From Cyanophora paradoxa CCMP329 (Eukaryota > Plantae > Glaucophyta), in NCBI GenBank assembly GCA_004431415.1, contig QPMI01000425.1:1-64000 (forward strand): 64,000 nucleotides of DNA, written 5' to 3'. Both the position numbers and the translations under genes were made by a program. The notes beneath the pieces were generated by a model. That model saw only the letters and a program-made list of their open reading frames with translations. It did no database searches and was not told the DNA's origin. Below are positions 10,909-43,414 of this stretch, in pieces. Each line of letters opens with the position of its first letter. Position 1 is the first letter of the stretch.

Positions 10909-11072
10909 GATGCCGCGCAGCACAGAATCGCTAACAATGTTCGGGAGGAATTATCGGATACATTATGCAGGGATTGAGTCAGGATTTGCTAACGAAGAAC
11001 AGGCGCATTGGCGATGAACAGCACGATGAACAGGAAGCCCAAGCTCCAAACGCTGATCGACATTCGGATATC
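10909..11072 (+). pseudogene. Detached 5' end of the element A PolB-helicase gene
   Basis: ATG follows the AAATTATTTTCTCCGG motif. Removing element B and one TSD copy gives ...EQEAQAPNADRHSD-TLNGIINPRV..., in frame with ORF 39260-43414. One further frameshift near 11010 is needed to reach the 10909 ATG. Confidence 0.7.
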
Positions 11073-12112
11073 ACCATAGTAAAATGCGGAGTTTTAACCC
11101 TCGGCTTATCTTAATTGATTTTGTTGATATCTCGTATATTCTATTCAATCAATCGATAATCTGTGTGTATCTTATCGAATATTCAATTATTTCGATTATT
11201 TTGTATTCTTTTCGATATTTTATCGTAAATTCTCTTATTTTCCGATTAGTCTTACTTAGTCTATCGATAATCTGTATATATTCCGATAATATAACTGAAT
11301 CTCATTATATCTTGCCTCTGGTTAAAACTCCGCATTTTACTATGTGTGAATGGTCATTTGTTTAATTGATTTAATCGATATTATATTCATGTACTTTCTC
11401 GATTAAATTTAATTAAATTTAATTCATTTAATCGGAAACATATCGCTTAAACTCGATTAAGATCCATAAAAGATTCATTTGTTAAATAAAACAAATAGAT
11501 CTCTTATTGAATCCAATCGATATAATACATAAAATTATATGTTTTTTATCATGTTTTTATGAGTCTAAGGGGGGTCCTTAGGAATTTGATGAATAATTGG
11601 GTGTCACAGGTGTCACAGGTCCATCCAAACTTTTGAAAATTCACTCTTTATAGGAGAAACTTGGGATAGACCTGTGACCCTGTGACACATACCATATTCA
11701 GTAAGGACCTCTTTATAATGAAAAACGCAGTAATTATCTTATCTATGTTTTCTAATTAAATGAATAAATGATTTAATCGAGTGTCACAGGTGTCACAGGT
11801 CCATCCCAAACTTTTGGAATTTACTCTTTATAGGAGAAACTTTGGGATAGACCTGTGACACTGTGACACACAACATATTCAGTAAGGACCCATATATTGT
11901 TAAAATCTCAGTGTTAGTTGGTGTAGTTGATTCAAAAAATGCATTTATACTCTGATTCATTGTTATTTCCTGTGAAATTTGAGTCAACTCAACCCACTTA
12001 GTCAACCCTCCCATTGGAATTCGTAACAAAATCCATATACTTTACTACTTTTACGATTAATATGAGTCAACTTGAGTCCACTAAATTATATTGGGGAATG
12101 AAGGGAGATGCT
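11073..12112 (+). repeat. Left terminal inverted repeat of element B
   Basis: Reverse complement of 38205-39263, differing mainly by single-base deletions; begins AC(A)CATAGTAAAATGCGGAGTTTTAACC. Confidence 0.95.
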
Positions 12113-12260
12113 GAGTTTTATTGTAAGGAAATCGATAGTATTCGAAATGTAAATATTCTATTGTAGGAAAGGGATATATTATATCCTTTTGTTATAATAG
12201 CTGATCAATGTTATTGTAATAAAAAAGGTAAATCACCCTGATCATCATTATAGAAACCCA

Positions 12261-12989: not shown

Positions 12990-13772
12990 GGGAAATATCG
13001 ATTAGTGCCATAGTACTCAGCATAGGTATCTGCTTTGCAATAAATCAGTTCTCTCAGCATATATACACACTTGTAGATACCAAACTGTGGCTCTAACCAG
13101 GAACTGAAATTTCCAAACAAAATTGACTCATGATAAGCAATTCGAAATTATCATATGGGTGATCACAACTGCAAAATTAGGAGTTCCACCTCCACTTGAC
13201 ATACAGCATATACATCTGGTGGAAATCCACAACAACCTTGTAGTGGTCACCATCTCACAAGAGAGTCTACAACTGCTGTCTGTTCATTACACAATGGGGA
13301 ATATTTTGATTATATAGGGGCATTCATGCTGGGACATAGGTTCGAATTCTGGTGTTAGGATCAATGGGATTGGGTTGATCATTCACAAATAAAGGCGCTC
13401 CAACAGCCCCACCAACCGAAGACCATCACCAATATAAGCTCCCCGATTTGCAGTTAATAGCTCCCGACCTAGATTCAAAAGAATAAGAGACAGAGGATCT
13501 CCATAGCTATCTGGGTCTCCATAATGAGCAGAAAAGTTCGCATTTGTCACAAGGAGTTTCGTTGTCTTAACTATACCATTATTTTTATCACATCTGAGTT
13601 CCTGCAATCTCAGTTTATGGGTGGAACCAAAGGTGTTCATTGTAGGTTGGACCTCTGTTGATTGGAGACCCTCTACATCATCAAAGGTAGCATGCTGTAA
13701 AACATGGTTTGCTGGGGCAGCTAATGATAGTTGAGGTGTAATAATTCGTTCAAGTGGGGGTTGCTCAGCCAT
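12990..13772 (-). CDS. Fibre-like paralogue 1 of element B, frameshifted
   Basis: Shared N-terminal module LQELRCDKNNGIVKT...GAYIGDG. Confidence 0.5.
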
Positions 13773-13809
13773 TTTACATTAAAGGGATATATCTTTTATG
13801 GGGTTGGGT

Positions 13810-14930
13810 CATCAATTACATCTGGCTCTTGGTAAAACCCTGTTTGAGAAAGAGTATCAGGAGTAACACCTCTTAGAGCTGAGACAGCAGCTATATCTGT
13901 TCTGATACCCATAACTGTAATTGTATATTTTCCAATATCTGTAACAAACAGATCATAGGTGAAATTGTTATTATAAACACAGAACCCTGTGCCAAAATGA
14001 TCATATCCTTGACACTGAAATTGTATCTGTGACCTGGCTGGTTATTGTTGGCTCTACATAAAGAAAGCATTGCAGAAGGAATGACCAGCCTCTCATTATC
14101 TTTTGGTTCTTCAATCAATTCAGAGTTTTCAAGTGTGACAGTATACCTTGGTAAAATTGAATAATTGGCTGTTGTGCACTGGTATATATATCGAATTCGT
14201 TGTGGGTTCTCTACATTTTGTTCAAGAAGTATCTGGGACATCATTATACGAAATGAGGATGAAAGCTGACCTGAAACTCTGCAGCCACCACCAATAAAGC
14301 TCCTCCTGATCTCACAGTTACAGCAGCAGTGTTTTTATCATAATCAAGGGCTTTCAGATCAACACTGTAAGCATCAGGACCTCCATTAGTAGGCCGGAAA
14401 AAGTTAGCATTGTGAAAGAAGTCGAGTTGTTTTCACCAACCTGAGTTTCTTATCAGCTCTCAGCTCTTTAACTCGAATAATCGATTTTTAATCAAAGGAG
14501 TTCCATTGGAATTGGGTCTCTCTGTGGATTCCAACCACGAACCTCATCATTTACTTCATGCTGGCGAAAATGCATTGCAGGGGATCCAAGGGAATATATA
14601 GGCAGTTGAACTCGATTATATTCACCCATTGCTTCTTTTTACTAAGAAGGAAGAAAATAATGTACAATACATTCTGTGACATTGTATACTCAATTGCTTC
14701 TTCACAGTTCCCCTTTGGAAGCCTGTAATAACAATCGCTTCCTTTGAGTTGGTATTTGAACTCCACCTGAGATGCAAGAATGGATTTCTTTCGAACAATC
14801 TCATCAATTGCAATTCTTGCTCTGTTATGGCAGCATTATCGATCCAATCCTGAACAGAAGCAGCACAAAATTCCATTCCCAATTCTCAATATCAGATAGA
14901 ACCACTTGGTAAATATCGACATTTCCTAAA
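13810..14930 (-). CDS. One or two hypothetical genes of element B, frameshifted
   Basis: Protein-like ORF fragments 13891-14244 and 14622-14882 on the same strand as neighbours; no motif recognised. Confidence 0.3.
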
Positions 14931-14943
14931 CTACCAAAGAAAA

Positions 14944-15950
14944 TTAAACGATGCTTATTAATTCACCTGAGAAGGCTGTTTTACTTGCATATGAACCGAC
15001 TGAATTTGTAACAAGTGTAACAAATTCGTTTTGGGCAAGATTGAGAATGCAAGAGAAACACAGCGCTTTATTTGTTGTTGACAGATTGTGAACTTGGGAA
15101 ATGCTCAATCCCCCTGGATCTGCATTGTTTACCCTGAGAAAATTCAATAGCAGAAGTTGTGGTTGAAGAAGTGAATACTGAAAAACGATAGTGTCCTGCA
15201 ACAGGTGCTGTGAACCTTCCAGTTGATTGTGAATGAATGGTATTGTTTACTCGAACTGTTGCCCAGTTTATTAGATCAGCAGAAGTTGTAGCAGTGTGAT
15301 TGTAGCCAGTTGAACTGAAAATCGTGGATGTGATGTTTTTGAGATAACACCCTGTATTACTGTCAAACTATTCGCTTCCAGAGTAGCGACAGTGTTACTA
15401 TTTCGTTTGAGAAGAAGGTCTACATTGGCTCCTGTATCGATTTCTGGTGTGACAACCTTGTTTGTTGCTGTGATTATGGATTGTGAGGCAATTGGTAGTG
15501 AAATACCAGCATTTGCTGTTACCAATCCTGTAAAGGTGCTGTTCCTGTAATACTTACCTGATTGCTGTGAAGTTCCATCAACTCTCGCCCCATCTCCAAT
15601 GTAAGCTCTCCACTTCTCACAACAAGAGCAGAGTTATTGATTGTGTTGTTAAATGTTACTATTTTGGGTGTGGTGAAACCCTCCTACATCATCATATATT
15701 GATAATCGGAAACAATTTGACCTGATTGAACTTGGTTCTTGTTTGAAACTATTAAACCTGTGGTTCTCACCTTGCCCCATTGCGATCACATCGAATTTCT
15801 TTGCATCTGATCACAGAGTTTTGAGAAAATGAATCGGCTCCTGTTGTTTCAGTGCAAATAAACCCAGGGGTTGCATCTGTTACTGTGTGATTGAGTTGAT
15901 GTAATTTGGGGCAGCATAACAGAAAACAGGAACAGCTATTTGTGTAGACA
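14944..15950 (-). CDS. Fibre-like paralogue 2 with C1q/TNF-like head, frameshifted
   Basis: PGFICTETT...KEIRCDRNG...YIGDG module, then TGRFTAPVAGHYRF and a terminal TAFSGELI, typical of C1q domains. Confidence 0.55.
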
Positions 15951-15954
15951 TTCT

Positions 15955-17030
15955 TTATATTATGTAGACAATATTATGAATGGACAAGCATACATCCAAA
16001 GAACCATCTGATATTATAATATATAGAACCTCACCACTGCTATTATATGATATTCTGATGGAATCATTGCTTGAAGGTCTACAATAATTTCGAACCATTG
16101 TTTGCATATGCAGATGCATAATTAGTATGCACTTCAATTCCAGATGAGCTTCCGTTTTTCTGTAAAAATGTAACAATATTAGTTGTTCTTCCAGTCCAAT
16201 AACAGGATCCACTAAATGTGACAAGATAGTTTCCTGTAACAGGGGCAGTAAAAAGCCCTGTCGCAGGATCGAAATGATTTCCTTGGTTCACTATGACTCC
16301 TGTTGTTGGATATATATTTATTGAGGAAAGTGTTGCAGTTATTGACCATTTGGTTGCTGTTTTGTTGCAAAGAAACGAGATGGCTACTTAATTTGAGATA
16401 TTTGCTTGTCGGAAGTGTGAGATGTTGAACAGTTGTGGTATCTGTCTGAATAGTTTTTTGAAGAGAAAGAATGGTATCCCATTCCTCTTGTAATTCATGA
16501 CTGTGTCACTCATGTTGTCAATCTCAGGTGTATTTATCTTGTTGTAAGTGTGAGAGTTCCATACTGAATACTCCTGAAAGCCCACCATTAAAGGTCATCA
16601 ATCCTGCAAATGAACTTGTCCCACTCACAGTCAATTGATTTGCTGTCAGAGTTCCTGCTACATTTGCTCCATCACCAATGTAGGCTCCTCATCTTGACTA
16701 CAAGAGCGGAATTATTGCTTGTGTTCCCAAAAGTCACTATCTGTGCTGTGGTGACTCACCACATTATCATATATTGCTGAATCGGGGACTACTGACCTGC
16801 TTGAACCTGATTTTATTCGAGATTATAATGCCTGTGTTCTAATCTTGCCTCCATTTCGATCACATCGAATTTCTTTGACCCTCAGTATACTGTTCTCTGT
16901 GAAAGAGGTATTACTTGTAGTTTCAGTGCAAATAAAACCGGGTGTAGAGTCGACTACTTCATGAGAGGTGCTGTGGAGTGATTTGGCTGCAAGTTCAGAG
17001 TTTGGGATTCTAATAGAGAGGTCATCTTTG
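15955..17030 (-). CDS. Fibre-like paralogue 3 with C1q/TNF-like head, frameshifted
   Basis: PGFICTETT...KEIRCDRNGGKIRT...AYIGDG module; NQGNHFDPATGLFTAPVTGNYLVTFSG is a C1q signature. Confidence 0.6.
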
Positions 17031-20000
17031 TAATAGTGTGAGAATCTTAATTATGCTGTTGCTATCCAATGGATATACACTGTGAAGCTTGTAGGGTAAA
17101 GTGTATTCCAACCACAACCCAGACTTGTACATTGACTGTTGTTGATGTTTTGAGTTGTTGGTAATTGCAATTTTATATCCGAGATCAGTGCAATCTGCAA
17201 GCAATCCTTGCATATTTGTAACAACAGAGGGTGTAGATGAAAATGCTGGACTCCAATTGAGGGTGAAGTAAATTTGGTCTTGCAGTTGCTGAATTGTTCA
17301 TCTGTTGAGGATTGTTATGGTAATGGATTGTATACCCTTTCTAATCAGTTATCAAGCATGTATTGGGGTGCCAACTTAGTCACCTTGGAGTTATCTCGAG
17401 GATCCATTACCCACATTCTCTGCATATGCATTTCCACGAACAAGTAGGGTTTTATCTGATAGTAAGATATAGAGTTAGTAGAAAGGGTTGAATTGTGGAA
17501 ATTCCAAATAACAGGAGGATCAGGCATAATATATGGGTCATAATCGAGAAAGTAACCTGATCCAATGAGAAGGTTTGCATTTGCAGTGATATTATTTGCT
17601 GTAAAGGGATCAAGGGTGGGTTTATTGTCAGATCATTGTAGTTGCCCGAGAAAATCGCTGGTTGTTATAAATATCTGTATTCCAATCATGAGTATGTGCA
17701 AAATCTGTAATCTCTGCCTTAGTGTGGTGTGACCTACATATGCAACATTTCCAAGATCTGTAATCTCTGCTTGGTATGGGTGTGACAACATATGCAACAT
17801 TTCCAAGATCTAAAATCTCTGATTTAACATGAGTGTGAGCGAAATTCGTATATCTGCTCTTGTGTGATAGTGTGCAAAATCTGTAATTTGGGACTTGTGT
17901 GGGTGTGTGCGAAATCTGTGATTTCTGCTTTGTGTGGGTGTGTGATCTATTATTAAGATCAAGGAAGCTTCCCGAAAATGCAACAGGATGCAGATTTGCA
18001 GAAGTAGGTTTATTAATGAGATCATTATAATCTCCTGTAAATGAAATGGTTTTCAGTTCACCCTTCCTACATAATCAGAAGGTAGATCAATCTTGATGGG
18101 CATGATAGCTGGATCATCTGGAATCTCATACTCACCTCCTGGTGAACCACAGGAAGGTTGATTGCTTTCAGTGTGGACAAAGAAATTGCATGCTGTTACT
18201 GTTCCATCAATAATCCCACCTGTAGAGGAGGTAATTGCCTGTGACACCAATACTATACTGCAATGATTGTATTAAGTTCTGTTTCATCAATGTAATTTTG
18301 GCTTGAAGGTAATCCTCTGTGACCACTCTGGATATGGTCTCATTGTGAATATTCTTTGCAGCCATCCTCTGATTGGCTTCCAGAACCCACCATAATTTGT
18401 TTAATCCATGCAAGCTCTGCCTTCCATAGTTATCATTTGCAGTTCCACTATGGAATATAGGAATACTTATCTCGACTGAAAACTATCATTGGTCTTGAGC
18501 CATCTAAGCTGCTTACATCTGCTACATGAACCTGTATAGCAGAGTTGTAATTTTGTAGGTTGCTGGGTCTGTTGGGACTCTGAATGTATCTGTGGGAATG
18601 TCAGCCTCCATGTAGCTTGACACAAAGATATTTGGTATGGTTGCTCCTGGTGGTGGTGGGTTTCAAAAGAGCCTGGTAATGTCCTAATATGAAGTGGTCC
18701 TCTCATAGCTGAATTTGCAAGTGTCCCATTCACATGTACATAGTGTTCATTCAAAAAGATTCTTTCTGGACATTACAAGTCTGATAAAGAGAAACCCCAA
18801 GTTATCAAGAGGCTCTACCTTTGCGAATTCTGGTTGGTCATTGATCTCATCCCAAGTATGTTCATGTTTGCTGGTGGGAACTCAGTTGGAATCCCATCAA
18901 TTCACCCAATCATGCCTGTGATCCTCTGGTGGATACTTTTGAGTTTGCTAAGATCTCATCCCAATCATGATTGTGATCCTCTGGGGGATACTTTGCAGGT
19001 TTATTATTAATTTGTTCATAATCAGGAAAGAACTCCCAGATCTCAGGTCGAAATCCATCTGGTAACAATTCCTCATGGGGTTCATAAGGTTGCTCATAGT
19101 CAACAGCTGGTGGATCATGCCCATCTGGCAAATACTCCTCATCAGGTTCATAGTTCTGCTCATACTCAAACTCTTGTGATCTAAGCCATCTGGTAATATT
19201 TCCTCCTCATTGGGTCAAATTGATCATACTCATACTCTTGTGGGTCGAAACCATCTGTAAATACTCTTCCTCATCTGGAACGAATTGATATTCTTCAAGC
19301 TCTAATATATCGACTTCAGGAGGTAAATACTGCTCATCTATTTGCTTTCTGGGTTCAATTATAGGTTTATTGCGAACTTGCTCCCAACTTACAATATGCT
19401 GCCCAAAGGCTACATCTTCAGTTGCTGTGTATTCTCTTCCAGGCTGCTTCTTTGGTGTTAAATCGGGTGGTCCATGGGAAATGGAATAGGGAATGGGACT
19501 GTTGGTCCATTGGGACCATAATGCTCGATATTTCCCTTAGAGTTTTCTCACTCACAAGTTTCTCCCCATTTGCATACACATTGCTGCCATGGATATTTCG
19601 CCATTGCCTGGTTCGAATTCCAAGGTCTTTCACATTGCTATACAAAGGCAAGAGGTGCCTATCCATTTCGACTAAATCAGGGTGTAAATGGATTGCTACT
19701 GGTTGACTGGGGCTACTGTTGATTGTAATTGATGGCTTTTTTGATGGACATCTTTTGGAGTAAAAACCCAAAAGGCTCATTCCTCGCAAAGTCATATGTA
19801 ATATCCTTGGGGTATACATCATTTGTGTAGGAGACCTGATTTGTGTTGGCAATGGGACCCACTTGCAATACTTGGGGACCTCAGCTTTTGCAGTGCTGCC
19901 CTCATTGTAAATTCGCAAAGCTGTGTTCTGTTTGCCCTGCTCATCTTGAACATTGAAAACCAAACGACCACTATCAAACCTGGAAGGTATATCTGGATGG

Positions 20001-20288
20001 GTGCCACTGGTTTTCAGTTTCCTAGGTCTCCTTCTGGTGGCTTTGATCTCTGCCACTTGGTTTGCTTTCACATTACCAAACTAAAAGCAACACTGACCTC
20101 CTCTTTATCTGGATCGGTTTGATTCACAGATAAAGCATGCTCCTTGATTGAGTCTTTGATGAATTATCAGAGCTGTGGTCAATTGAAACTGAACCCTTTA
20201 CTTTAATATTATCAAAGTTCACATGCTTGGTGCTGCTTGCATTATCATCTTGAATGGTTTCTAGATTTGGTGGGTAATTGAAGCTCAT
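17022..20288 (-). CDS. Long fibre-like protein(s) of element B with His-containing and acidic repeats, frameshifted
   Basis: N-terminus homologous to 1840-2241. Contains LLPLYSNVKDLGIRTRQWRNI, acidic YEPHEELLPDG repeats (~19050-19330), PEDH.HDW repeats and H.H.K.(Q/E)ITD(F/L) fibre repeats (~17680-17945). Confidence 0.55.
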
Positions 20289-20331
20289 GGCTTTTACTAT
20301 ATGGATTTATAAAATTCCTGATAAGTAAAAG

Positions 20332-21881
20332 ATGCCTCTCAAGGTCGTTTTAAGTCTTTCTGGCGGGGGTGCAAGGGGCATTATCATAACCAGGCTGCTC
20401 AAAGAAATCGAAAATCGAACTGGCAGGAGAATAATCGATCTTGTGGATCTTGTGAGTGGAACTTCCACTGTGGGATCATTGCAATAGGTTTGAATATAAG
20501 GCATCCTGATAGACCAGGTGAACCTAAACTGACAGCAAACGATTTACACAATATTTACCTAACTCAACTGCCCTTGATTTTCGCAAATCCTCGAAATATA
20601 ATCGAAAATGCCCTTTTTAATACAAAGTATGATGTGGGACCCTTGGAGACTGCAATCAATTCAGTTACTGGTGAATCACTCATACAGGATTCCCTTAAGG
20701 ACATTGTGATTACATCCTTTGATACTCAGAATATGAAACCAATATTTATCACAAATGACAACAATTACAACTTTATGCCTTGTAAGATTGCTGCCAGGGC
20801 TACTTCTGCTGCTCCTACATATTTCTCTCCTGTAAGCATTGTTGATTTCAATCGGGGAGTATATGTCTGTCTCATTGATGGTGCCATTTCGGGAAACAAT
20901 AATCCCAGTGTGTGTGGTTACAGCCATGCAAAGAAGATTTACAGTGATGATGATGATATTATAGTAATAAGTATCTCTTGTGGAGAGGTAGACCCACATT
21001 TAGAGTCTGATTATGTGGGTTATGCTTATGAGACTGTAAACAGCTGGGCATTCTCTCATGGATTGCCTCAACAGATGGAAGCCCATTGATTAACATGCTC
21101 ATGGCTGCAAGTGAGCTTTCTGCCCTTGATAAGATGGAGGAGTTGTTACCCTACAACTATGATCAGGATTATGGAGATACTATAGGCTATCGGTCCCTCT
21201 TCCAAACCATATAGTTAGCTCCCTTGATGACACTTCTAAAATCCCAGATATGCTTTCTTTCACAGAAACCTACATTGCAGCAAACAATGATATGATCAAT
21301 AAGCTTTGCAGCCTACTAGTAGCAAACTATGAACTAAAGAACCCTTCAAAGGCTTACATTTCATCCACTCTCACTACATCACCACCTTTGGATGCTAATT
21401 GGTATCAGCTTGCAGATGATGCCTTCACTGCCTCATCCTCTGTGACTGGTAAAGAGCCTTTCATGGCTAGACCTTCAGCATTTGGCTGGGAAGCTGGAGC
21501 CTATGCTCCTGAGCAGATATGGGAAACCCCACTGAATACCTTCAAGTTGCTTTCCATATACTTTGAACTCTCTTCTGTGATTGCCTATGGATCAGGGGAC
21601 ACCAATGCTTTTATTAAGATTTTCAATGTGGCAACATCCACTGATGGGATCAACTGGTCTTTTATTCGATCAGATGGGCAGAACAAAATATATGTCTGTG
21701 AGAACATTAACAATGCTCACAACTCAGGTGATATGGCTCTATTGAGTGGGTTCCCTCTCAGCATCAAGGATGCTTTTACATAGGTTTTTCTCTCAGAATT
21801 AAATATATTCGCATTTATCCCCTTGTGTATGTGAATGCTCCCACAATGAGAGTTGATTTCACAGGTGCCTTTATTCGATAA
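20332..21881 (+). CDS. Patatin-like phospholipase with C-terminal discoidin-like domain (element B), frameshifted
   Basis: VVLSLSGGGARGII, SGTST, AARATSAAPTYF and LIDG; C-terminal AFTASS...FIKIFNVATSTDGINW is discoidin-like. Confidence 0.85.
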
Positions 21882-22801: not shown

Positions 22802-22830
22802 TTTAATATATAAATATAGATAAAAGAAGA

Positions 22831-23840
22831 ATGCCTGTGGATTACATCGAGGTTAGCTCATTTAATACAATCTCTGGTGATGGTCCCACATCAAGCTTTG
22901 TGGCTCGACTCCCCAGTAGTTATGAGAATGTGAGGGCTGTGAGACTGGTCTCAGCCGAATTTTATAACAGCATCCCTATGGTGAGTGGTGAAACCAAAGC
23001 AGGAGATGTCACAGTTGATAACACATTTAGTATTTATTATTCGGAACAAACTCCAGGAGCTGGAAGCTCAGGAATTCCAACAACTCGCCCAGCTGCTGAT
23101 TTTGAACAATGGAAACAATTCATGGTAAATCGCGAGACCCCATCCAAAGCCACCAACAGCTGGTGAATGTAATCAACTCAAAATTCATTGGCAGAACTCC
23201 CCAACCATCCATTCGCTGCAAATGGGATGAGTCACTGAAACGAATTATATTCCACTCGGCAGTGCCTTTTTACCTGGCTTTCTCACTTGCTGTAAACCCA
23301 AGCCAACAAACAATCCAAAAGCTATTGAGTTCAGCTAGACTGCTTGGTCTTGATCCTGGAAGATATGGGAATTCCCCAATCAAATCCCAAGTTTATGATG
23401 CTCTCACTGATGGAATCTTTACTGATGGTCGAGTGAATGGCATTATATCTTCTTTTGAGCCTGAGAAGACCAGGGACAGTGTTTTGTTTGTGAGAGTAAA
23501 GGAGCTGGGTGATCTGGTTCAATGTGGGGATGGTCTTCTGACTGGTTACTTTCATAAAATAGTGGTTCCTGACAAAGATTATGGTGAGCATGTTGTTTAC
23601 AATTCAACAGAGGCTCATCCACTTTATAAATACTATAACAAAAAGGTTGGATTATCCACTTTCTCGGTTGATATTGTTAATGCTGTAAATGAACCAATTG
23701 ATTTTGAGGGTCAACCTGTTCATCTGACCTTTGAAATTCGCTATGGTGATGAGCCAGCAGGAGACCCAGTTTATGAATACTTTAAGATGAGAATGTCGCA
23801 GCTTCACCCTTCCTATCCAGTTATTACAAGCTTCGCATAA
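22831..23840 (+). CDS. Minor capsid protein 2, element B, one frameshift
   Basis: SFVARLPSSYENVRAVRLVSAEF and LFVRVKEL...LSTFSVDIVNAVNEPIDFEGQPVHLTFEI. Confidence 0.8.
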
Positions 23841-23893
23841 ATTAAGGATCATTGGTAGATTTTTTATGTTGCAGTATAATAAAAGAGAATATA

Positions 23894-28588: not shown

Positions 28589-28691
28589 AGGTGTTCACAG
28601 GTTTTTATCGTCCCCTGGTCATTTTTCTTTTTATAGCCCCCTAGATGGGATGGACCTGTGACACCTGTGAACAACACCATTTCCAGTAAGG
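28581..28691. promoter_or_regulatory. Putative internal replication origin (inverted GTGTCACAG iteron pairs)
   Basis: GGTGTCACAGGTGTTCACAGG ... GACCTGTGACACCTGTGAAC ... CAGTAAGG just downstream of the helicase stop; same architecture as two units in each TIR. Confidence 0.45.
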
Positions 28692-28733: not shown

Positions 28734-31058
28734 TTAATATTCAACATCCTCTCCATTGTCTTCTTGAACCCTTGTTATCTTTCGAAGTCCAATGTAGCCC
28801 CTTGCTCTGGTTCCCTGAATTCGTTTAACCTCTGATTTCACATTGAAGATTTCCCTTACTCTCTTCATCACAGAAACACATTCAACTTTATCATCCACAC
28901 TTCTGTATGATTTGTAAATGGTATCACTCGAAACAAAGTCGTTTGCATTATGGGTAACTTCGAAATTATCCCTAAGCCATTCACCAATCTTGTCATTTTC
29001 AGCTATAAAGTTTATTCCCTGCTCAATAATCGATTGAGGGGGATTTCTTAAGATCTCTTCAACTTCTTTGTTCTTCCACATATCCAGTAATATCTTCATG
29101 TGAGCCATCTTATACACATCATCATTGTGAAGAAGTGTGAACAGAGTTGGGTCAGCTTTCTTTTGACCAGCTTCAGGCTTCTCTCTGAATATATTATTGA
29201 ATCTCTGGTATGAAAGCCTTCTTTGAATTGCAAAGTCTGGTTTATTTATAGTCAAATTGTCATTAGTTGTAATGTAAACCTGGAACATTGGAGTGAGGAT
29301 TACTGGGTCTTTGAACAAGGCTCTCACAGTCATTTCATTTCCACCTGTGACCTCCTTAATTTTGGAAATTTGCAGTTTATCACCATCTTCAGCCTCATTA
29401 CTGAATACAAGTCGCTTTCCCAGGAGTTTGGCAAGTTCAGGGTAGCATCTGATGAGTTCTTCTTAGGTTTGGTCCAATAGGATATTTCGAGAGGGCTGTA
29501 ATAAGCCCCAGATATCTGTTTGCAGTATTCCTGAACAAGTGATTTACCATTAGCACCAGCACCAGTCCACATGTAGAACTTCTGTGATTTTGTTGATCCA
29601 CTCAAAGCAATTGCAATAGATGCCAGAAGATAGTTTCGCTCTGCTGGATCATCTACAATCTCTCTATAAATCTGATTGAGATGCTCCACTTTCTTGGGGT
29701 CTACATTCTCAGTAAAATCATAACCCACACTCTTGCTCACCATATCTTCCAGTTTACCCTTTCTGAAAGTCATAGTTGTCAGATCAAATACACCATTATC
29801 GAATCCAATTACATATGGAACTGTATCAATCTTTTCATAGAATTCATCATCATTTAGCAGAGGGAGCAGATCAGTCAGAAGGGATTTGCGATATCCTGAT
29901 TGTTTAAGATTTTTGGCAATAGAAATTAATGTTTTTGATTTCTCTTCGAAAGCTGTTCTATTCTCTTCATCCTTCAAAGCTCTTTGGCTATAATGCACAG
30001 CCCTGCCAAGGTATTGAGGACAACAAGGCAACTAATATCTAGGTAAATCTTTTGGTTTGTGTCATCATGCTCCCAAATCCCAGTATCAGTATTGAGTTTG
30101 AACCATGACTTTTTGGAGTATCTCCAAGTGTGTTGTAGGACCTCTTTGCACACAAGACTGACATCATAATGAGCGCCTCCAGAGCCAGCGGATTTATCAA
30201 TGAGATTGAAGATATCAGATTGCATTCCAATGAAGATAAATCGTTTTTTGCAATTGCCACTGTAGCTGGACACAATATACTTTTTATCTTCCCTTTGGCT
30301 TTCATAACATACCAGTTATTCGATTCATGTGACCCATTGCAGCATGGGCAATTGAGTCCCTTATTAGCAGCATCAAAGTTAAAGCCCAGTTCAGTTTTAG
30401 AGATTATATTGGGATGCATAAAGCCCATATCCACCAGCTCTTTCATAATACTCTTTTCCAATTCATCATGTGAGGTAGCATTAGCAGTATACTCACTCTT
30501 ATAGATATAGTTGTCTATAATCCACTTTTTGAACTCATCAGTAGGCTCATTGAAATCACAGGTATCATCCCATGGGGCAATCACCCAAGTCTTGTTCACA
30601 CTAGGACAAACATTGATCAATCCAGAAGTTCCAGTTCCAGTGATTGTTTTCAGGTCAACCTTTTCAAAGCCTTTAAAGCCTGGAGCCTTATCGGTGATTT
30701 TGAGTTTATTGAACTCCTCAGGTCGTTTAAAGTAGACATGATAGCCTTTTTTAGTTTTTGCCATGGGTTGATTGGCATCAAAGTCATCAGGAAACATATC
30801 TCGGAATTTCTCAAAGTCCTCCTCATCATCAAAGTCAATAACCGTCATGTTGTCTGAGAGCAGAATGCCCCAAGATACATACTGATTAGTTGCCAGCGCT
30901 TCCTCATACTTTTCCCAGGACCAAGCACCTCCCTTATGCTTGAAAACTGGGTCTTTGCTGTCAGGTTTCACTGGGATAATCATGTTTTTGGCAAGTTCCT
31001 CATCAGAACGAAGCCAGTTAGCGAGCGATTTAATTAACTTGGTCTGTTTGGCGTTCAT
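28734..31058 (-). CDS. Prim-Pol primase fused to D5-like SF3 helicase, two frameshifts
   Basis: WGILL...VIDFD and KTKKGYHVYF (Prim-Pol); CPCC..SH Zn site; IGFDNGVFDL (D5_N); Walker A GAGANGKS; TVRALFK, TTN and AIQRRL SF3 motifs; basic C-terminal winged-helix-like tail. Confidence 0.88.
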
Positions 31059-32504: not shown

Positions 32505-35500
32505 ATGCCCGAATTAGCAACAGACTCATTAGAGAGAAGAAATGGGAACTTATGGGATTACTGGAACACTGTATGCAGCCCATGAAATCACAGAGGCTGA
32601 ATATGACCGGGAAATCGGATTTATTTCAAGGGCAGACCCACTTTAGCAAAATTAACCAGAAAAGCCAATAACCTCTATGATAAAGTTGAAACTCTTGATG
32701 AACTCGATCGCCTGAGGCAAATAGAACCAGAGGCAGAAGATGGCACAGCCATGAATGAATTATATCGCTGGCTCACATACAGAGCCAGAAGGGAAGTTGT
32801 TGTAGATGTGATTGAATATTTAGATAGAATTGCAACCTCTCTACCAAAACGTTTAAGGGATAGTCTGGATCAATTCAGGGCAATCAAGGTTCGCTTGTCG
32901 TTTATCTGCAAGTTCGTTAAAGTCAGCAATCCGCAGGTTTGGATATCGAAATACATTTACAGCGATTATTTTGTATTAACCAAATCGAGAAATATTCGAA
33001 CTGAGCTGAATAAAGCAGCCCAAATGTGTCAGGAGCAGATGAATGTGGTTGACAGCTATCGACTTGAAAGAATCGAAATGCTAAGAGTTGCTATTATGAG
33101 TTATGCCCCAACTGGTGGCTGCTATGTTAAAACACCAGAATCAATTGCAGCTAAGAAAGCCACAGTGAATATTCGAAATATTGATGATTCTTGCTTTGAA
33201 AATGCCATTTTGGCATGGATCCATAGGAAAGATGTAAATTCCCACAAGAGAAGTGAGCTTACACAATATCGCAAATGGAAATACTCACCAACCACATACA
33301 ATCCTTTGGCTCTCAATTTCGACAATATCCCATTCCCTGTTGCCTGTGATGCTGAAATAATTGATAAATTCGAGGCTCAAAATGCAGGCATTAGCATTAA
33401 TATATTTGGAATCGATGGAGAGGTTATTTATCCCTGCATCAATCCAGCAACCCAGGCAGAAAGCAAAAGATTAATCTCATGCTCATTCATGATGATGAAG
33501 GGAATGGTCACTATATTACTATTATGTCACTCTCAAGACTTCTCAGAGTTGCCCTTGATAAAACCAAGGATCAAAAGTTACACTACTGTGACACATGCTT
33601 ATCTCGATTTAGGTCTGAGGCTAAACTCACTGCTCATGTGGACTCAAACAGATGCATTGATTGGAGACTCTCAAAGGGAATCACACCAAAACCTGAGACC
33701 ACCATAGAGTTTGGACTCAAAAACCTTAGGAAAACTGTATGGCTTCCTGTTGTGGTCTACTGCAAGATTGAACATAGAAGCATCCCCATTGATGCATCGA
33801 AATCCAAGAGGGAAGTCTCAGCAGTCAACCTCAGAGTAGTCACTGGGGCAGATGTTCAAGATTTTCGTTTTGAGGGGCAGGATCCAATGGGAGGTCTGTT
33901 TGAATGCTTGGAGTCCAAAGCTAGAGAACTAATCGATTTCCTGTTCACCAATATTCCTATGAATGAACTCACAGATGAGCAGAAAGCAATTTACAGAGCT
34001 ACCAAAAACTGTTACCTTTGCAGTGAGAGATTCACTAAGGAGAACTTTAAATGCAGAGATCATGATCACCACACAGGTCAGTACATTGCTCCTGCTTGCA
34101 GAAACTGCAATCTCCATAGGAGAATCTCAAAGCAAACCAAAGTAGCAGTGGTTGTTGACCAAATGGATGACTGTGGGTCATTCATTTTCAGAAAAATAGC
34201 AGGTTTGGGAGATAAAAAGCGAATCGAAATCCTTTCGAAAAACTTTGATCAATACCTTTCATTGCAATGGGTCTTTACAAGTTCATTGATGCAAGTAATT
34301 TCATGGATTTTGGAGCTGCTGATGTAGATGAGTTAATGAACAAATTCCAAGCCTTCAGAAGGCTTTCACACTCAGTATATGGACTTGACCCAGTTCATTA
34401 TGTATCTGCCCCTGGGTTATCTTGGGATGCTATGCTTAGGACCACCAAGGCAAAAATAGAGCTTATAAGTGATGTAGAGCAATACGAATTTGTTGAGAGG
34501 GGAATCAGGGTGGCTTTGCAACAATGCCTTGTAGGTATGCTGAGGCTGATGGTGAAAACTCCCACATTATGCTGTTTGATGCTAACAACTTGTATGGCTA
34601 CTGTTTGAGTCAGCCAATTCCAGTTGGTGATTTTAGATGGGAGACCGAATTCAACCCACAAGATAACAGATCCAGTTTCCTAGAAGTTGATCTGGATTAC
34701 CCAATTAGGCTGTTTCTAGATCACAGTGATTTCCCCCTAATTATTAACAAGAAAATAGTAGAATATGCGGAATTATCACAATATCAAAAGAGCCTATTAG
34801 ATCTCTCAGGAGAAGAGCTTGATAAAACCCCAAAGCTAACTGCAACCTTTGGTTCTGTGGCAAACTATGTGATTTCTGAGCCTCTCCTACAGTATCTGTT
34901 GGACAAAGGGGTGAAATTAAAGAAGGTTCACAGGGTCCTATCATTTACTGTGGCTCCTGTAATGAAATCTTATATTGAGCTGAACACTGAGATGAGAAGG
35001 AAAGCAGTGAATAAATTCGAGGCTGATTTCTATAAACTGATGAATAATTCAATCTATGGGAAATGCATTGAATCATGTAGAGGTAGATCTGTGGTTAAGA
35101 TTGCAAACAGTGAAAAGCTATTTATGAAATATGCAGCCTCTCCATTGGTGAAATCAACAAGCCCATAAACGAAAAAGCAGTTGCCTTTGAGTTTTACACA
35201 AAGCATGTGAAACTAGATAAGCCTGTTGCAATTGGGGCTTATGTTTTGGATGCAGCCAAACTGCATAATTACCAGTTCTTCTATGATACTATAAGGTCCC
35301 AATGGTCCAAAGCCAAATTACTGTTCCATGATACTGATTCCTTTTGTCTATATATCGAATCTAAGACCCTACAAAAAGATATAGAGAATATATCCTATGC
35401 ATTAGACCTTGGAGGTGATTCCAGAATGACCCAGGTAAATACAAAAATGAGATGCCAGGTTCTGCTTTATTGGAGTATGTGGGTCTAAGAGCCAAAGTTT

Positions 35501-35742
35501 ACAGTTTCAGAACTGCTGAGATTGAGAGAAGTAAGCTCTCTGGGACTTCCACTGAGGAACTCCAATTTAATGATTTTAAGCAGTGTTTATTTGCAGGTAT
35601 CAGCAAGACTGTGACTGCAAAGCAGAAAAGAAGGGCAGACCACACAATAATAGATACTGTGAGTAGAAGGGTTGCCCTAAACTGCTTTGATGCAAAGAGA
35701 TACATCTTACCAGATGGTATTAATTCTGTTCCTTTTAATTAA
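32505..35742 (+). CDS. polB: Protein-primed family B DNA polymerase (Maverick type) with protease-like N-terminal region and inserted endonuclease VII-like Zn domain, frameshifted
   Basis: Polymerase motifs FDANNLYG, KLMNNSIYGK, HDTDSF, GLRAKVYS and FDAKRYIL; CYLC...RDHDH.TG....ACRNCNL insert; N-terminal DDSCFENAI...GHY. Confidence 0.92.
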
Positions 35743-35745
35743 GAG

Positions 35746-37130
35746 ATGCCAGCAACTGGAAGAATAGTTAGGAGAACCACTGACCAACTGCAAGGTAACC
35801 TACTGCCTATCACAGTTCCAAAGGAGGAAAAGGGGGAATCTCGAATTGTTAAAAAGTCAGAGATGAAAGAGCTTGTCCCTGTAGAGATCCCAGTTGCCAT
35901 TGCAGTGAAAGAAACCAGCAAGATTGCCAAAAGATTCTATGATGTGAGAACTGGTTACAAAGGGCTTCAAGCTATGAGGGCTGAGTTACCAGATGAGTCC
36001 TATAAGCAATTGCAAGAGTTCTATAAAAAACAAGAAGTTGTTCAGATCAATGCACCTGCTATATCTAGAAAGAGAGATCCCATGGTCCCAATCAGACAAC
36101 CCTTGATACCTATGTAATTGATTTGCTCTTTTTCCCAGCTTATAAGAAACAAAACAATGGCTATGATACCTTTATGACTGCTATGGAATCCACACTGAGA
36201 ACTGGGTATATTATACCTATAAGGGATAAATCAGCTCTCACTACATTGGCTGCATTTAAACAGCTTGAGATGAGAGTGGCAAGACCAATAGTAAAGGTTC
36301 AATCAGATGCTGGAAGTGAGTTCCAAAATCGAATATTCCAGGAGTATTTATCTAGTAAATTCATAGAACACCAAGTGAGTGGAACTGCTGACCACAGAAG
36401 CCAAGGTCGAATTGAAGCCTTTAACAAGCAGATTAAGAGACTGATCACAAACTACTGCATAGCTAATAACACAGCTAGATTTTTTGATGTGTTAGGTGAT
36501 ATTGAGTATAATTACAATAATACAGTTCACTCAGCTACTAAGATGAAGCCAGGCGAAACTACAGAGGAGCATTATAGGTATATAGTGGGATTAGAAGATG
36601 AGAGATTCAAGAAATCAATAGCTTATCTTGATACCATGCAACCTGGCATGTTTGTTAGAGTGAAAGTTGAGAAGAACCCCTTTGCTAAACAGGGTAACAA
36701 TTGGTCTAGGATGGTTTACACTGTTGATAGTAGGGAAGGCTTTAAGTTTAAGCTAAGGAGTCCCACTGGTGAGATCATTGATAACAGGTTTGCTTTCCAT
36801 GAGCTGTTGCCTGTGAATGCAGTTGAGTATCTGGAAACCCCTACAGTAGATGCCTTAGAGCAAGCCAAAGAAGAAGCCAGGGTTGATGCTGCTATAAGGA
36901 GAGAGGGCATTGAGGCTGCTAATGAAGTCCCAGATAAGCCTTTGATAGAGGCTAGAAAGGAGAAGACTGGCAAGGTTAATAGGGAACTCAAAAAGCTCAC
37001 CATAGCAGGAACACAGAAACTTTCAGAAGTGAATAGCCAGAGATGGTATAATGACTTTCAAACTACTAAGGAGTCATATACAGCCCCTAAACCTCAAAGA
37101 ACACTAAGAGAAAGGACCAAAACTAGCTAG
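35746..37130 (+). CDS. Retroviral-like (rve) integrase, element B, one frameshift
   Basis: DDE triad IDLLF / QSDAGSEF / RIEAFNKQIK; YNNTVHSATKMKP. Confidence 0.92.
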
Positions 37131-37309
37131 TTTCGATGCCGAAAACTCGTTTTTTCCAAATATATGTATGTGTGATGTACATATATGCATATGATATACA
37201 CATCAACTTGTAGATCTTTTCAAGCGCTTCACAACGCTATGCAGAACGTTGCAAGTAGACAATCTGGTGATCAGATACAAGCGTTTGAAGATGCCGACAA
37301 TCCTGATTG

Positions 37310-38060
37310 GTTGATAAAAGATGTGCCAAAAAAATGCGACATGGATAATAGCCTAAAAAAATATGCGCCATGGATAATGCTCCATTACAAAAAAATGCGC
37401 CATTGAAATGAGCCATGGATAAGGTTGACAAAAAATGCAACATGGATAATGCTTTAGATAACAAAAAAATGTGCCATGGATAATATTTAGTAAAAAAAGT
37501 GCGACATGGATAATGTGACACTGACCATATCGCCGTGATCGTCATGATCTCCCGAGTCCGATGGTGTGTCATATATATCACATACATATGCATCGTCATT
37601 ATGACGTCATTACAATCGTTTACCCCACTGTGGTTTATTCCCAGGTTTTCATGGCGCATTTAATGGCGCATTTTATGGCGCATTTAATGGCGCAATTTAT
37701 GGCGTATTTTATGGCGCATTTAATAAAAATTCCCTACTCTGTGGCATGAGCCAATAGGAAGCAAGCAAATTAAAGTATTAATAATAATATTTTATCTGAG
37801 ATGAAATCTGAGGTATTATCTGAGATATTATCTGAGGTATTATCTGAGATATTATCTGAGATGTTACCTGAGATGTAAACCTGGGGAGAAGTTGAAGGGG
37901 GATACATACAAACACTGATGATCTGTTTTAATGATGCATCATAATGATGCATCATATCAAACTGTGTATATATATATCGCCGTGATCGTCATGATCTCCC
38001 GAGTCCGCCGGTGTGTCATATATATCATATACATATGCAACGTCATGATGACGTCATACC
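37310..38060. repeat. Subterminal non-coding repeat region of element B
   Basis: AAAAAATGCGMCATGGATAA-like units (37325-37515), ATGGCGCATTTW 12-mers (37651-37722), TCTGAGRTATTA 12-mers (37795-37875) and a ~75-bp duplication (37527 and 37974). Confidence 0.85.
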
Positions 38061-38204
38061 GAAACACCCCATACAAAACACTAATATGCATGTATCTCTC
38101 CACCAACTCATCAACTAACAAAGATAAAAACAGTTCCAGAATCCTCTTAACGAGGCTAGCGTGATGATGTAAGTCTCATAGGCTCAATAATTCATATGTT
38201 TCTA

Positions 38205-39263
38205 AGCATCTCCCCTTCATTCCCCAATTATAATTTAAGTGGACTCAAGGTTGACTCATATTAATCGTAAAAGTAGTAAAAGTATATGGATTTTGTTACG
38301 AATTCAATGGGAGGGTTGACTAAGTGGGTTGAGTTGACTCAAATTTCACAGGAAATAACAATGAATCAGAGTATAAATGCATTTTTTGAATCAACTACAC
38401 CAACTAACACTGAGATTTTAACAATATATGAGGTCCTTACTGAATATGGTATGTGTCACAGGTGTCACAGGTCTATCCCAAAGTTTCTCCTATAAAGAGT
38501 AAATTTCCAAAAGTTTGGGATGGACCTGTGACACCTGTGACACTCGATTAAATCATTTATTCATTTAATTAGAAATACATAGATAAGATAATTACTGCGT
38601 TTTTCATTATAAAAGAGGTCCTTACTGAATATGGTATGTGTCACAGGTGTCACAGGTCTATCCCAAAGTTTCTCCTATAAAGAGTGAATTTTCAAAAGTT
38701 TGGGATGGACCTGTGACACCTGTGACACCCAATTATTCATCAAATTCCTAAGGGACCCCCTTAGACTCATAAAAACATGATAAAAACATATAAATTTTAT
38801 GTATTATATCGATTGGATTCAATAAGAGATCTATTTGTTTTATTTAACAAATGAATCTTTTATGGATCTTAATCGAGTTTAGCGATATGTTTCCGATTAA
38901 ATGAATTAAATTTAATTAAATTTAATCGAGAAAGTACATGAATATAATATCGATTAAATCAATTAAACAAATGACCATTCACACATAGTAAAATGCGGAG
39001 TTTTAACCAGAGGCAAGATATAATTGAGATTCAGTTATATTATTCGGAAATATATACAGATTATCGATAGACTCAGTAAGACTAATCGGAAAATAAGAGA
39101 AATTTACGATAAAATATCGAAAAGAATACAAAATAATCGAAATAATTGAATATTCGATAAGATACACACAGATTATCGATTGATTGAAATAGAATATACG
39201 AGATATATCAACAAAATCAATTAAGATAAGCCGAGGGTTAAAACTCCGCATTTTACTATGTGT
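38205..39263 (-). repeat. Right terminal inverted repeat of element B
   Basis: Reverse complement of 11073-12112; ends ...CCGCATTTTACTATGTGT followed by ATACTC. Confidence 0.95.
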
Positions 39264-42200
39264 ATACTCTGAATGGAATCATTAATCCCCGTGTTTTCCG
39301 CAGGGCAGAGCGAAAAGAGAAGCGTGCCGCTCGCACCCAAGTTAATATAGAAAAGCAGAAGCAAAAAGAACAAGAGGCTAAGCGTTTACAGCGCTTCGAT
39401 CGCAAGCAAGAACAGAAACGAGCGAAAGAAGCGAAGCTCGAAGCAAAGCAGCAGAGAGGTAAACTAAAAGCGGTAGAGGATGCGATCAAACGCACTATTC
39501 TCGATCCAATCGCCCAATATGATCCGGAAACTCTCGCGACAGTTACGTTCAAGATGTGGGCACCTGGATCCGGTGCTCGGTCGTCGGAGGTAATTGTTAT
39601 TCCCGGAATTCCCGAATTAAATATACCAGACAGTTCCTTTGTCACCTACCGCAATATAAGAGAGACAGTTTCGGTGAGTGTGTTGCGAAGCTTTGCTCTG
39701 GCGAAAATGGATAGAATGTCTCAAATTCTAATTAGACCGGGTCAAGTTCGTCATGATTGGCATGAGAGCGAATCAATCTTCTATTTACTCAAAAACTACG
39801 ATGAATTGGCAATAGGACTTAAAACTTTCGGCGAAGCATACGAGGTGTTCTTCTTTAAGACACCACCAACCGAGGAACAGAAAAGACTACGCCTAATGTT
39901 TGATGATTTTGGCGGCAGTATCGATGATGCCTTTATAACTGTTCATGAGGTCGCGATCGATGGGGACGAAGTTGTCGAGGACGATGGAGCCGGCGCTATC
40001 CCTGGCAATCGCTATGAGTTTCTGGATGAGGAGCTCATGGACAGTATGCGATGCACCGCGATTATGAGCAAATTCACAGACTATACATTAAATCCAAACG
40101 CGTCTGAGTTCGAAGATGTTATTGAGCTTCCCAAATCATCGACATCTAACGCTTGCGGCTATGATATGATCATCTCCACATGGGGAGCGTCCATTAAGAA
40201 GTGTCAGGAGGCGCCAAAACCGCGATATACTGACTTAACTATGTCGTACGACGGTCTCTATAAATTCTTTCACGGTCGCGAACGCACACCTGGCGACTCT
40301 CTGGCTCTCACGCTCCGCCATATCGAGAAATTCTGTAAGAGAATCCAGACAGGCTTCCGCGTCTTTGATGTCGACGGCAAGTTAATATACAAATTCGCGG
40401 CGGAATCGATTAACAGAAACATCAATCCCCGCAATATTCACTTTATGATTCACAACAAGCACATCTATATATTCAACGATAACATAAGGTCGCTCGAAAT
40501 GCGCATGGCAAAGATGGAGGTCGAAGAGCTCGATAATCATGTTCCTAAGTCGACCTCTTCGTTAGCACTCTATAAAATTCCGACGTGTCTTACTCACGAT
40601 ATCTTCGCGCACACATCCAAGGATCTGTTAAAGATCACGCAATTAAAACTATCGCCTGACGAGCGCAGTTTCATTCGCATTCTTTACACTGGGCGTGAAG
40701 GTCTGGAAGGTCTTCTATTTACGTTCCTGAAAATGCGATATGAGCCCGCTGTGAAGTTAACACCGTCGAAACAGATCGAAAGCATTACATTCAAAGCCAA
40801 TGGCTCGATGTTCTCGATCAAAGACCCACGCACAACCGACCACTTCATTGAGCAAGATTTCGAAACAGAGGAGTATTATAATAAGGTCTGTGAAATCGGT
40901 AAGGGTTTCCGCGAGTCACTACTAAATGCGACGAATATCTCACATTACAGCCCGAACATGCGCGAAATTCTCACGCACTACAAGCGATCCGCACTCAGCG
41001 GCTATTTCTATAAGCCGAACCCGAAAGCCACCTACACAGCTGTCGATATGGCGAAGTGCTACCCTTCGATACTGAAAGGCATGCAATATCTTCCGAAGTA
41101 CAATGTGTTTGATGATTTCGTTCCCTTTAAAGTGGGAAGCGATATTCTCGAATACGCGATCTACTACGTGCGTGTCGTTGCGTTTGAGAGAGAGCAAGCG
41201 ACTTTCGCCGACGATGAGGATGTAGATTATGACGCCGCCATGTCTCGCAAGATTGATGGAATCGAAATTATTCTGGATCGCGCATTTTCCGTGAGTGGTC
41301 GGTGCTACAATTTCATCACAGGCTACACTCTCTCCATGCATTGGGCGGACGTAAAGGACAAGATAGAGATTATCGCGGTCGCGGAGCCTTCGCATTTGGT
41401 GCCCAATACGTCGATCGCTGAGATGAAGAAAGTGCTGTCAAGCGACATTCAATCCACAGACAAGAAGCACATTTTAGTGAAAGAGATCGGAATGCTCGGC
41501 AAATTCCAAGACTCGCAAACATCCACGAAAATGTTCTACAACCGTGCCGAGGCTGAAAGGTTCGCCCAAGAATGCGGAGGAACAGTAGAGGTGTTTACTT
41601 TCAATCCTAAGAATTCGAAACGTGTCAAAGCTCTCAGCGAATTCGAAGGTCACATCTATTTCGTTAAGATCAGCTCTCACCGCGAGCTTGTTAACGGATT
41701 CCTCCCGATCCACTTTCATATTTACGATCGCAACCGCGCTAATATGTTTGCGCAATACAAGCGCCTGACAGCGCGCGGGCACAAGGTTGCCGGGATCAGA
41801 ACGGATTGCCTATATATCGAAGGTTCATGGACAAGTAAGAAAGAGTTCGACCGAAATGCGTTTGAGAACATGGGCAAATTCAGCTATATTCCCGGGAAAA
41901 GATGCCCTGAGAATGCACTCCGCCCACCACGGGGTGTAACTCTCGAATTTCAGGATCCCGACACACTCATTAACCGGTTCTCGCTAAGGGACGAATTTAA
42001 TCCGGAGTGCTTTAATCGGGTTGCGGAGCTCCACAATCGTATGCTTGTCCTTGCTGACATGCCCGGAAGTGGAAAGTCGACACTCGGTATTAACTGCTTC
42101 GCCTCTCAGAAGTCGAATTGCTTGATTATTTGCCCCTATAACAAACAGTGCGCGGAGCTGAGGGACTCTCTCAAAGTCCGCGGAATCGAGAATATTACCG

Positions 42201-43414
42201 TTCGTACTTTGTATAATGTTCTCGGGATCCGTGTCTCAAACGATCAGACCTACGAAGAGGCTATGAGCGAAAAAGACCAGAGGGCGTTCGTCTCCGAGTT
42301 CAGTCACATTATGTTCGACGAGATATTCGCGTATTCCGTAAAAGATCTCGCTAAGATCAAGTCGTTTATCGATCGCTATCCGGATATCAAATATTTGGCT
42401 AATGGCGACACCTATCAAAACGAACCGATTAATGATGAGCTATCGGTTTCTGATTGCAAGGGCTACTATAAGCGTGCGGTGCAGAGCATGTTCCCGAACG
42501 TTCTGAGTCTTCGCATTAACAAGCGACACAAGAAGGAAACAGACCGTGAATTAATTCGGGCGATCAAAGAGGATCTCTTCGAGAACGGACTGGAAGCCGC
42601 ACAGATCATTTCGAAATACGGCTTGCCGACAATTAACGATCTAAGCACTATTCCCGACGGCTACTTTGGCATCGCTTACAGAAACGAAATGACCTTAGCA
42701 TACAACAAACTGATGCACGATAGACGGAAAGTAAATGTTCCAACCGTAGAGGTCAATGGCATCAAATTCTACAAGGGTTTGGAAGTCGTTTGCCGCAAGT
42801 ATCTACGCATTTCGCGGTCTGAGGGTGAGTCTATTAATGCATACACAAATTACACCTATCGGATCACCAAAATCACAAAGCAAATGGTCACATTAACGGA
42901 CGTTTTCGATGGTGTCACGTTCGAGGTTCCGTGCGCGATGTTAGAACATTTTTCTCTCCCTTATGCAGGAACAGGTCATTCAACGCAAGGTCTCACACTT
43001 GATTCGGGCATTGTCATTTGTGAGGCTACGTTCCGCTATACCACTCGCGAATGGTTCTATACCGCGCTCACTCGTAACCGTGATCTGTCTACTGTGCTGA
43101 TTTATACACCGATTCACAGATTCCAAGGAAAGAGCGACTACATCGAATATCTGAAAACGAAGATCCGCGGTTACAAATGCCAGGATCAGCGCGCCGGGCG
43201 CGATTTCGACGAGGCGGATTATATTACGCCGGAGTGGATATTAGAGCGCAAGAAGCAACAGAAGGGCGCCTGTGCGATCTGTTCCCTTCCTATTCCGACT
43301 GAGCCACAAGATCCGAATTACAAGCTCGTCGTGGATCGCATCAATAATAAGCGCCCACACCTTAAAGACAATTGCCAGCTCGTGCATCACGGGTGCAATT
43401 GCAGCAAAAAATAA
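39264..43414 (+). CDS. PolB-like polymerase domain fused to SF1 (RecD/Pif1-like) helicase and C-terminal HNH-like Zn domain (element A); 5' end cut off by element B
   Basis: Uninterrupted ~1380-codon frame. PolB-like AVDMAKCYPSIL, KHILVKEIGMLGK and GIRTDCLYI; SF1 motifs PGSGKST, MFDEI, GDTYQNEPI, NKRH, TGHSTQGLT and YTALTR; CAIC...VDRINNKRPHLKDNCQLVHHGCN. Confidence 0.88.

Follow-up and report, generated by a model that had tools for sequence, protein, structure and literature searches.

The window analysed here, the first 64,000 nt of contig QPMI01000425.1 (forward strand) of the glaucophyte Cyanophora paradoxa CCMP329 (GCA_004431415.1), holds two virus-like elements, called A and B below, with B lying inside A. 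Very likely this arrangement is real and came about recently, when an integrase inserted one endogenous polinton-like virus (PLV) into a single copy of a second, multicopy one. The reading we consider probable is that the 28-kb polinton-like element B sits between two 6-bp target copies in the replicase gene of a single copy of the multicopy element A, and that it was put there, likely by its own rve integrase, in an untargeted manner. A sequence-only reading had already placed B, with terminal inverted repeats (TIRs) of about 1.05 kb, inside the PolB-helicase gene of A, and this placement is borne out by the TIR alignment, by an empty site in other copies of A and by the gene sets of both elements. 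The main features are given below, with SF1 standing for superfamily 1.

1-10900: left visible part of element A, recognised by gene homology to B (tblastn, 27-40%, in B's order)
10868-10887 (+): upstream motif specific to A and candidate replicase promoter; 20-nt identity with 44810-44829
10910-11067 (+): 5′ part of the A replicase gene, 55 codons in uninterrupted copies
11068-11072 (+): left copy of the target site, ATATC, lacking one base of ATACTC
11073-39263: element B, 28,191 bp, TIR-bounded, with a virus-like gene set
11073-12115 (+): left TIR of B, its outer 275 nt bounded by an inverted copy of the terminus at 11320-11347
38202-39263 (−): right TIR of B, its terminal 283 nt folding back via perfect 28-bp arms (38981-39008 and 39236-39263)
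39264-39269 (+): right target-site copy, ATACTC
39264-43414 (+): 3′ part of the A replicase gene, with a PolB-like domain, an SF1 helicase and a C-terminal HNH-like motif in an open frame

From position 1 to about 45,600 the window is dense in genes and lower in GC than its satellite-rich remainder (A parts 46%, B 39%, the rest 54%); more exactly, B has a GC content of 38.7% against 45.7% and 46.4% in the two parts of A. At the left junction, CATTCGG ATATC is followed by the start of B, ACCATAG, and at the right junction CTATGTGT is followed by ATACTC TGAATGG. The ends of B are thus ACACATAG...CTATGTGT, and several contigs covering a B end start three letters ahead of 11075, fitting the terminus ACACATAG.

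Further evidence comes from copies of A that B has not entered. Of 22 public DNA runs, all from one organism, 20 contain the stretch, whereas X21 and X22 have next to none of its words; four (X1, X2, X3 and X17) were compared as Logan contigs, a type of contig that loses rare variants. Ten contigs, from all four runs (four in X1 and two each in X2, X17 and X3), match A up to 11067, continue with GATACTCTGAATGG and run without a break into the sequence from 39264 on, ATACTC occurring only once. The joint into 39264 was found independently in X2 and X3, the loose end of the X3 contig resembling 10839-10868, and the empty site is present both in the main form of A and in a diverged form of low depth. 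An uninterrupted site with a single ATACTC therefore supports a 6-bp target-site duplication (TSD). Uninterrupted A copies with one ATACTC, for which the sequence-only reading had proposed a search, thus do exist; of the TSD that it reconstructed from the two flanks, the right copy and the empty site read ATACTC as it had supposed, and the left copy, written there as ATA(C)TC, reads ATATC. In A DNA, 0.65% of positions carry a 5-mer that lacks a single base of ATACTC, and here such a 5-mer directly abuts the TIR. The uninterrupted copies carry one additional base right before the hexamer.

The TIRs of B (11073-12115 and 38202-39263) are 1.04-1.06 kb long and align locally with 1042 of 1077 positions identical (97%); in a global alignment they show 6 mismatches, and 22 gaps fall in the left copy against 3 in the right one. 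As no more than 6 substitutions separate the two over about 1,040 bp, the insertion event would be recent. In the mechanism that we propose, a linear B genome would have been joined to A at a 6-bp staggered cut, whose fill-in would have duplicated ATACTC. Integrases of the rve type typically give 6-bp TSDs, and nested retrotransposons have been described in the same source (PMC12220804). The TSD, the empty site and the rve gene of B all favour the integrase-type insertion assumed by the sequence-only reading.

B splits the PolB-SF1-helicase gene of A after codon 55. The ATG of this gene is at 10910, one base beyond the 10909 given by the sequence-only reading, and its frame in the window stops at 11017, so the codon count needs the contigs: 158 nt in the window plus 7 extra letters of an X2 contig make 165 nt, in agreement with the approximately 55 codons proposed from the letters alone. 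The peptide proposed across the join, NADRHSD followed by TLNGIINP, was read in the wrong frame, as the uninterrupted copies pass the join in the frame that ends ...LQTLIDIR in the window and not in that of ...NADRHS. The core of the A upstream motif is found also at 10322, and all three sites lie shortly ahead of the starts of open reading frames (ORFs), but it is absent from B. Since the motif sits upstream of the ATG and is not in B, B parts the candidate promoter and the start from the gene body. The 3′ part is open over 1,382 codons, and from its first ATG (39554) a product of 1,286 aa with all recognisable domains can be read.

Loss of function of the replicase in this copy is therefore likely, judged from the gene structure, but not certain, because a product from the ATG at 39554 would retain every recognisable domain. 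This A copy would have lost the link of the upstream motif and 55 codons to the remainder of the replicase, and could probably no longer copy itself, the 1,286-aa product remaining conceivable. If this copy is rescued at all, the numerous uninterrupted A copies would be the source, and not B. The nest may persist since the host would pay little for an insertion that hits a redundant viral copy next to satellite DNA.

Both A and B are multicopy, and the uninterrupted form of A dominates. Relative to a locus-specific contig (37225-37556), the median depth is 14-17x for B contigs and 14-28x for uninterrupted A contigs; these figures are a rough guide and not copy numbers. At this site, then, most of the A family is intact and would have no need of B. 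Of the two fates that the sequence-only reading had offered for A, being disabled is likely for this copy but not for the family, and being dependent on B finds no support, given the high depth of uninterrupted copies in all four runs and a visible right end of A that shares no sequence with the B TIRs. The diverged variant of A mentioned above, at low depth, carries 14-16 substitutions over 144 nt (10924-11067), and is uninterrupted in all four runs.

Several points weigh against an untargeted insertion that was assembled correctly. The observation is at its weakest at the left junction, which lacks three bases within about 14 nt of the expected sequence, an event of P 0.003-0.017 at the local loss rate of 2-4%. 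No contig bridging either B junction was present among the matches listed (32 of 175 pieces and 32 of about 14,000), and over 11038-11063 the two uninterrupted contigs in each of X2 and X3 together account for the whole depth, which leaves no room for a junction contig in these runs. Such an absence is no evidence that the junction is absent, because contigs lose rare variants, and for the same reason we dropped the idea that the missing junction contig in X2 and X3 reflects a strain polymorphism. The last point is the chance estimate, which stays below 20%. A uniform-insertion model, with 13-25 copies of B, 14-28 copies of A, an assumed A length of 20 kb and an assumed genome of 70-125 Mb, expects 0.03-0.2 nests and gives P(at least one) of 3-18%, or 0.6-4% for the replicase gene alone; it leaves out other family pairs, selection against insertions into host genes, and the choice of this window for holding a nest. 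Some bias toward viral DNA is possible.

These low values are what would speak for a preference of B for A-family DNA, by tethering of the integrase or through a shared replication compartment, whereby a competitor is inactivated. The insertion also lies in the largest replication gene of A, near its start, and Ngaro retrotransposons have been reported to prefer endogenous virophages (PMC8547959). We nevertheless hold such a preference to be improbable. Only a single event is at hand, from which targeting gains no support; the uninterrupted form is the high-depth form in all four runs, so that this cannot be a site-specific target in common use; with 4.3 of 18 kb, the replicase gene takes up about a quarter of the visible part of A; and one B-like end in X2 adjoins GC-rich, non-viral-looking DNA. 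It is likewise improbable that B is a parasite of a resident sister family, its integrase being drawn to A genomes, chromosomal or extrachromosomal, and disabling their replicase in a kind of integration-site warfare. Literature searches surfaced no paper showing one PLV targeting another. Nesting by chance or in a hotspot, which the sequence-only reading had left as an option, fits the data.

An assembly chimera of collapsed multicopy repeats would account for the imperfect left target copy and for the junction contigs missing among the matches listed; the sequence is rich in errors (22 gaps in the left TIR), the families are multicopy, and artefacts of this kind are documented for multicopy endogenous viral elements (EVEs; PMC10120064). 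For the observed order to arise from a mis-join, however, the switch from A to B would have to fall exactly between the final letter of ATACTC and the first base of B, and the return exactly between the last base of B and the first letter of that same ATACTC. A and B have no common sequence at the junctions (the sole nucleotide match of their gene regions, 169 bp at 76%, is distant). A near-identical, low-depth piece of subterminal B (37225-37556, with 0-1 substitution and 0-1 gap) is moreover present in all four runs, and we regard a chimera as very improbable. Just as hard to credit is that A and B make up a functional composite, a unit of at least 46 kb that moves as one and draws its polymerase, primase-helicase or capsid from B, possibly having formed extrachromosomally before integrating. 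It would make use of the full replication set of B, with its canonical PolB motifs, and of the intact integrase and 3′ genes of A. Yet the visible right end of A and the B TIRs are without common sequence, the capsids are only 37-39% identical, and a much-copied junction would appear at high depth, where none is seen among the matches listed. The untargeted insertion of B into one A copy thus stays the probable account.

B is complete as to ends and gene set, though perhaps not base by base. Besides the TIRs it contains the following genes, SF3 standing for superfamily 3.

13383-20080 (−): fibre-like genes, with many frameshifts in the window; two C1q domains (Pfam E 5e-8 and 7e-5)
20325-21089 (+): patatin-like phospholipase (PF01734, E 4e-7)
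22807-23840 (+): putative minor capsid gene, proposed from its position only; weak match to A 4707-5549 and no Pfam match
23866-25260 (+): major capsid protein, predicted double jelly roll (ESM Atlas 0.97, Capsid_NCLDV cluster); no Pfam match
25334-26065 (+): zinc-finger/endonuclease-like gene (DUF4379, E 2e-6), 38% identical to its A counterpart
26059-26915 (+): A32-type packaging ATPase, in two pieces (Pox_A32, E 7e-8 and 5e-4)
28734-31058 (−): primase-polymerase/D5-type SF3 helicase, in pieces (Prim-Pol, D5_N, DUF5906)
32607-35742 (+): PolB of the protein-primed type (pPolB), in pieces, with an endonuclease VII domain (PF03175, E 3.5e-11; PF02945)
35746-37130 (+): rve integrase, in two pieces (PF00665, E 5e-4, under the curated cut-off, on a fragment)

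The polymerase has motifs A, B and C (DANNLY, KLMNNSIYG and HDTDS), and the integrase is supported by its similarity to that of A (34% identity, E 1e-56). For the capsid, a model of a relative (P0011, 56% identical) was compared by Foldseek, and 24 of the 26 matches listed are double jelly-roll capsids or vaccinia D13, which we take as a lead only, owing to the low confidence of the model (predicted local distance difference test, pLDDT, 38). A search of 1.84 billion cluster representatives brought up just two relatives of this capsid, and viral contigs gave none, so that it may belong to a lineage of capsids not yet sampled.

The broken frames of B were set aside as a sign of decay, since 6 of 9 overlaps between its ORF pieces hold a site with an extra base in contigs of all four runs (judged from the 12 indels listed of 72). 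Those breaks are probably errors of the window sequence, as are documented in multicopy EVEs (PMC10120064), and the left TIR has likewise lost 22 bases relative to the right one.

In the TIRs, the outermost 275-283 nt of each copy (11073-11347 and 38981-39263) are delimited by perfect 28-bp inverted arms, and the fold-back of the right end has a z of −10.9, matched by 0 of 200 shuffles. The motif GTGTCACAG, repeated inside the TIRs, has one copy within B at 28646-28691, between convergent gene blocks. A 20-nt pattern of the TIR end gave 0 viral and 1 metagenome match (L001) having nothing else in common with the window, and was put down to chance; a sigma-70 scan of the right TIR, unsuited to a eukaryotic element, found 6 sites versus 5.9 expected in shuffles and was likewise rejected.

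The remaining genes of A lie on both sides of B.

Left of B: fibre-like genes (H-lectin matches)
2295-2990: patatin-like lipase
5618-6921: major capsid protein
7022-7994: zinc-finger/endonuclease-like gene
8002-8698: A32 ATPase
43433-44803 (+): rve integrase, intact (PF00665, E 1.7e-13)
44843-45157 (+): DUF5710 gene
45186-45578 (−): S-adenosylmethionine decarboxylase-like gene, a polyamine-pathway enzyme (PF02675, E 2e-11)

The patatin, capsid, endonuclease-like, ATPase and integrase genes of A are mostly 30-40% identical to those of B, with the order conserved, and the two gene regions share a single nucleotide match. Judged from these comparisons, A and B are related but distinct families. 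No relative of the A integrase was found in viral contigs, and no partner TIR for A within the 64-kb window, the left end of A lying outside it.

The helicase of the A replicase is recognised by UvrD_C_2, Viral_helicase1 and AAA_19, all under cut-off, whereas the one database relative found for the replicase, P0010 (30% identity), passes the Viral_helicase1 cut-off. The PolB-like domain has no Pfam match; the Atlas places it (0.90-0.91) in two clusters with DNA_pol_B_2 on 11% and 32% of members, a lead-level result, and it shows the motifs DMAKCYP and RTDC. The latter is motif C with one of two aspartates, so that polymerase activity is predicted at most. The HNH-like motif is visible at the C-terminus, and Pfam gives no HNH in A and one with E 0.85 in P0010. 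Searches of viral and metagenome contigs found no relatives of the replicase, and a PDB sequence search gave RecD only, with E 0.19 (P0012 gave nothing); a single-sequence model was discarded at pLDDT 33.

The known systems closest to B are the Polintons/Mavericks (Polintoviricetes), with which it has in common pPolB, rve integrase, A32 ATPase, capsid, long TIRs and a 6-bp TSD, as defined in PMC12747079 and 10.64898/2026.06.19.733378; unlike them it has an additional primase-SF3 helicase. An adenovirus-type maturation protease was not found by Pfam in 78 ORF pieces of the window, the left third of B being heavily frameshifted and its short pieces unscanned. Canonical Polintons have the termini 5′-AG...CT-3′, whereas B ends in AC...GT. 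The A replicase, with about 1,400 aa, an unannotated N-terminus, a PolB-like domain, an SF1 helicase and a C-terminal HNH-like motif, resembles the fusion of protein-primed DNA polymerase, SF1 helicase and HNH described in PLVs and Tlr1 elements (PMC5499653; also PMC13215967), but A differs from these elements in having an rve integrase.

Viral elements inside other viral elements are already known in single-celled eukaryotes, and the A and B families are new members of this phenomenon. In Halocafeteria seosinensis, PLVs (n=5) and virophages (n=9) have been reported within other viral elements, with palindromic TIR ends (10.64898/2026.07.28.741278). The virus families differ from ours; in our case population reads contain the empty allele, and the break lies at codon 55-56 of the replicase. 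The ends of B resemble those palindromic ends, but the fold-back consists of 28-bp arms around about 225 nt in place of a 52-nt palindrome, and B has a canonical pPolB. Another parallel is offered by the Ngaro retrotransposons in the endogenous virophages (EMALEs) of Cafeteria burkhardae, where a mobile element likewise breaks an endogenous virus, sometimes in pPolB or primase/helicase; EMALEs themselves are reported to have no sequence-specific integration, and Ngaro elements to be biased toward them (PMC8547959). In that case a retrotransposon intrudes and is reported to prefer the virus, whereas our intruder is a second DNA virus for which no preference is apparent.

The window thus offers a clean and datable case of one endogenous DNA virus inserted in another with the empty allele in hand, which suggests recent activity of the B integrase and gives its 6-bp footprint. 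Both families are far from database sequences (one replicase relative, two capsid relatives) and multicopy in an organism of which many samples have been sequenced, so that an insertion preference is directly testable; should B indeed favour A, this would amount to direct competition between endogenous viruses via integration.

Some further observations concern the surroundings of A, which adjoins 149/298-bp satellite arrays. A 206-nt unit at its right end (45950-46155) repeats 15.6 kb on in the same orientation (61534-61739 and 61756-61876), and its copies bracket a 149/298-bp satellite block, which may sit within or beside a terminal repeat. A contig in all four runs joins 37292 to 45836, linking B-subterminal-like to A-end-like DNA with 22 letters between them (29 on the short side), possibly a third or a recombinant family. 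Near the satellite arrays, a divergent histone H3 variant with short introns, which along with the GC-rich flanks suggests a microbial eukaryote as host, is encoded at 63474-64000 (+; Histone E 6e-25, weak CENP-T_C), and could be a centromeric or other variant H3.

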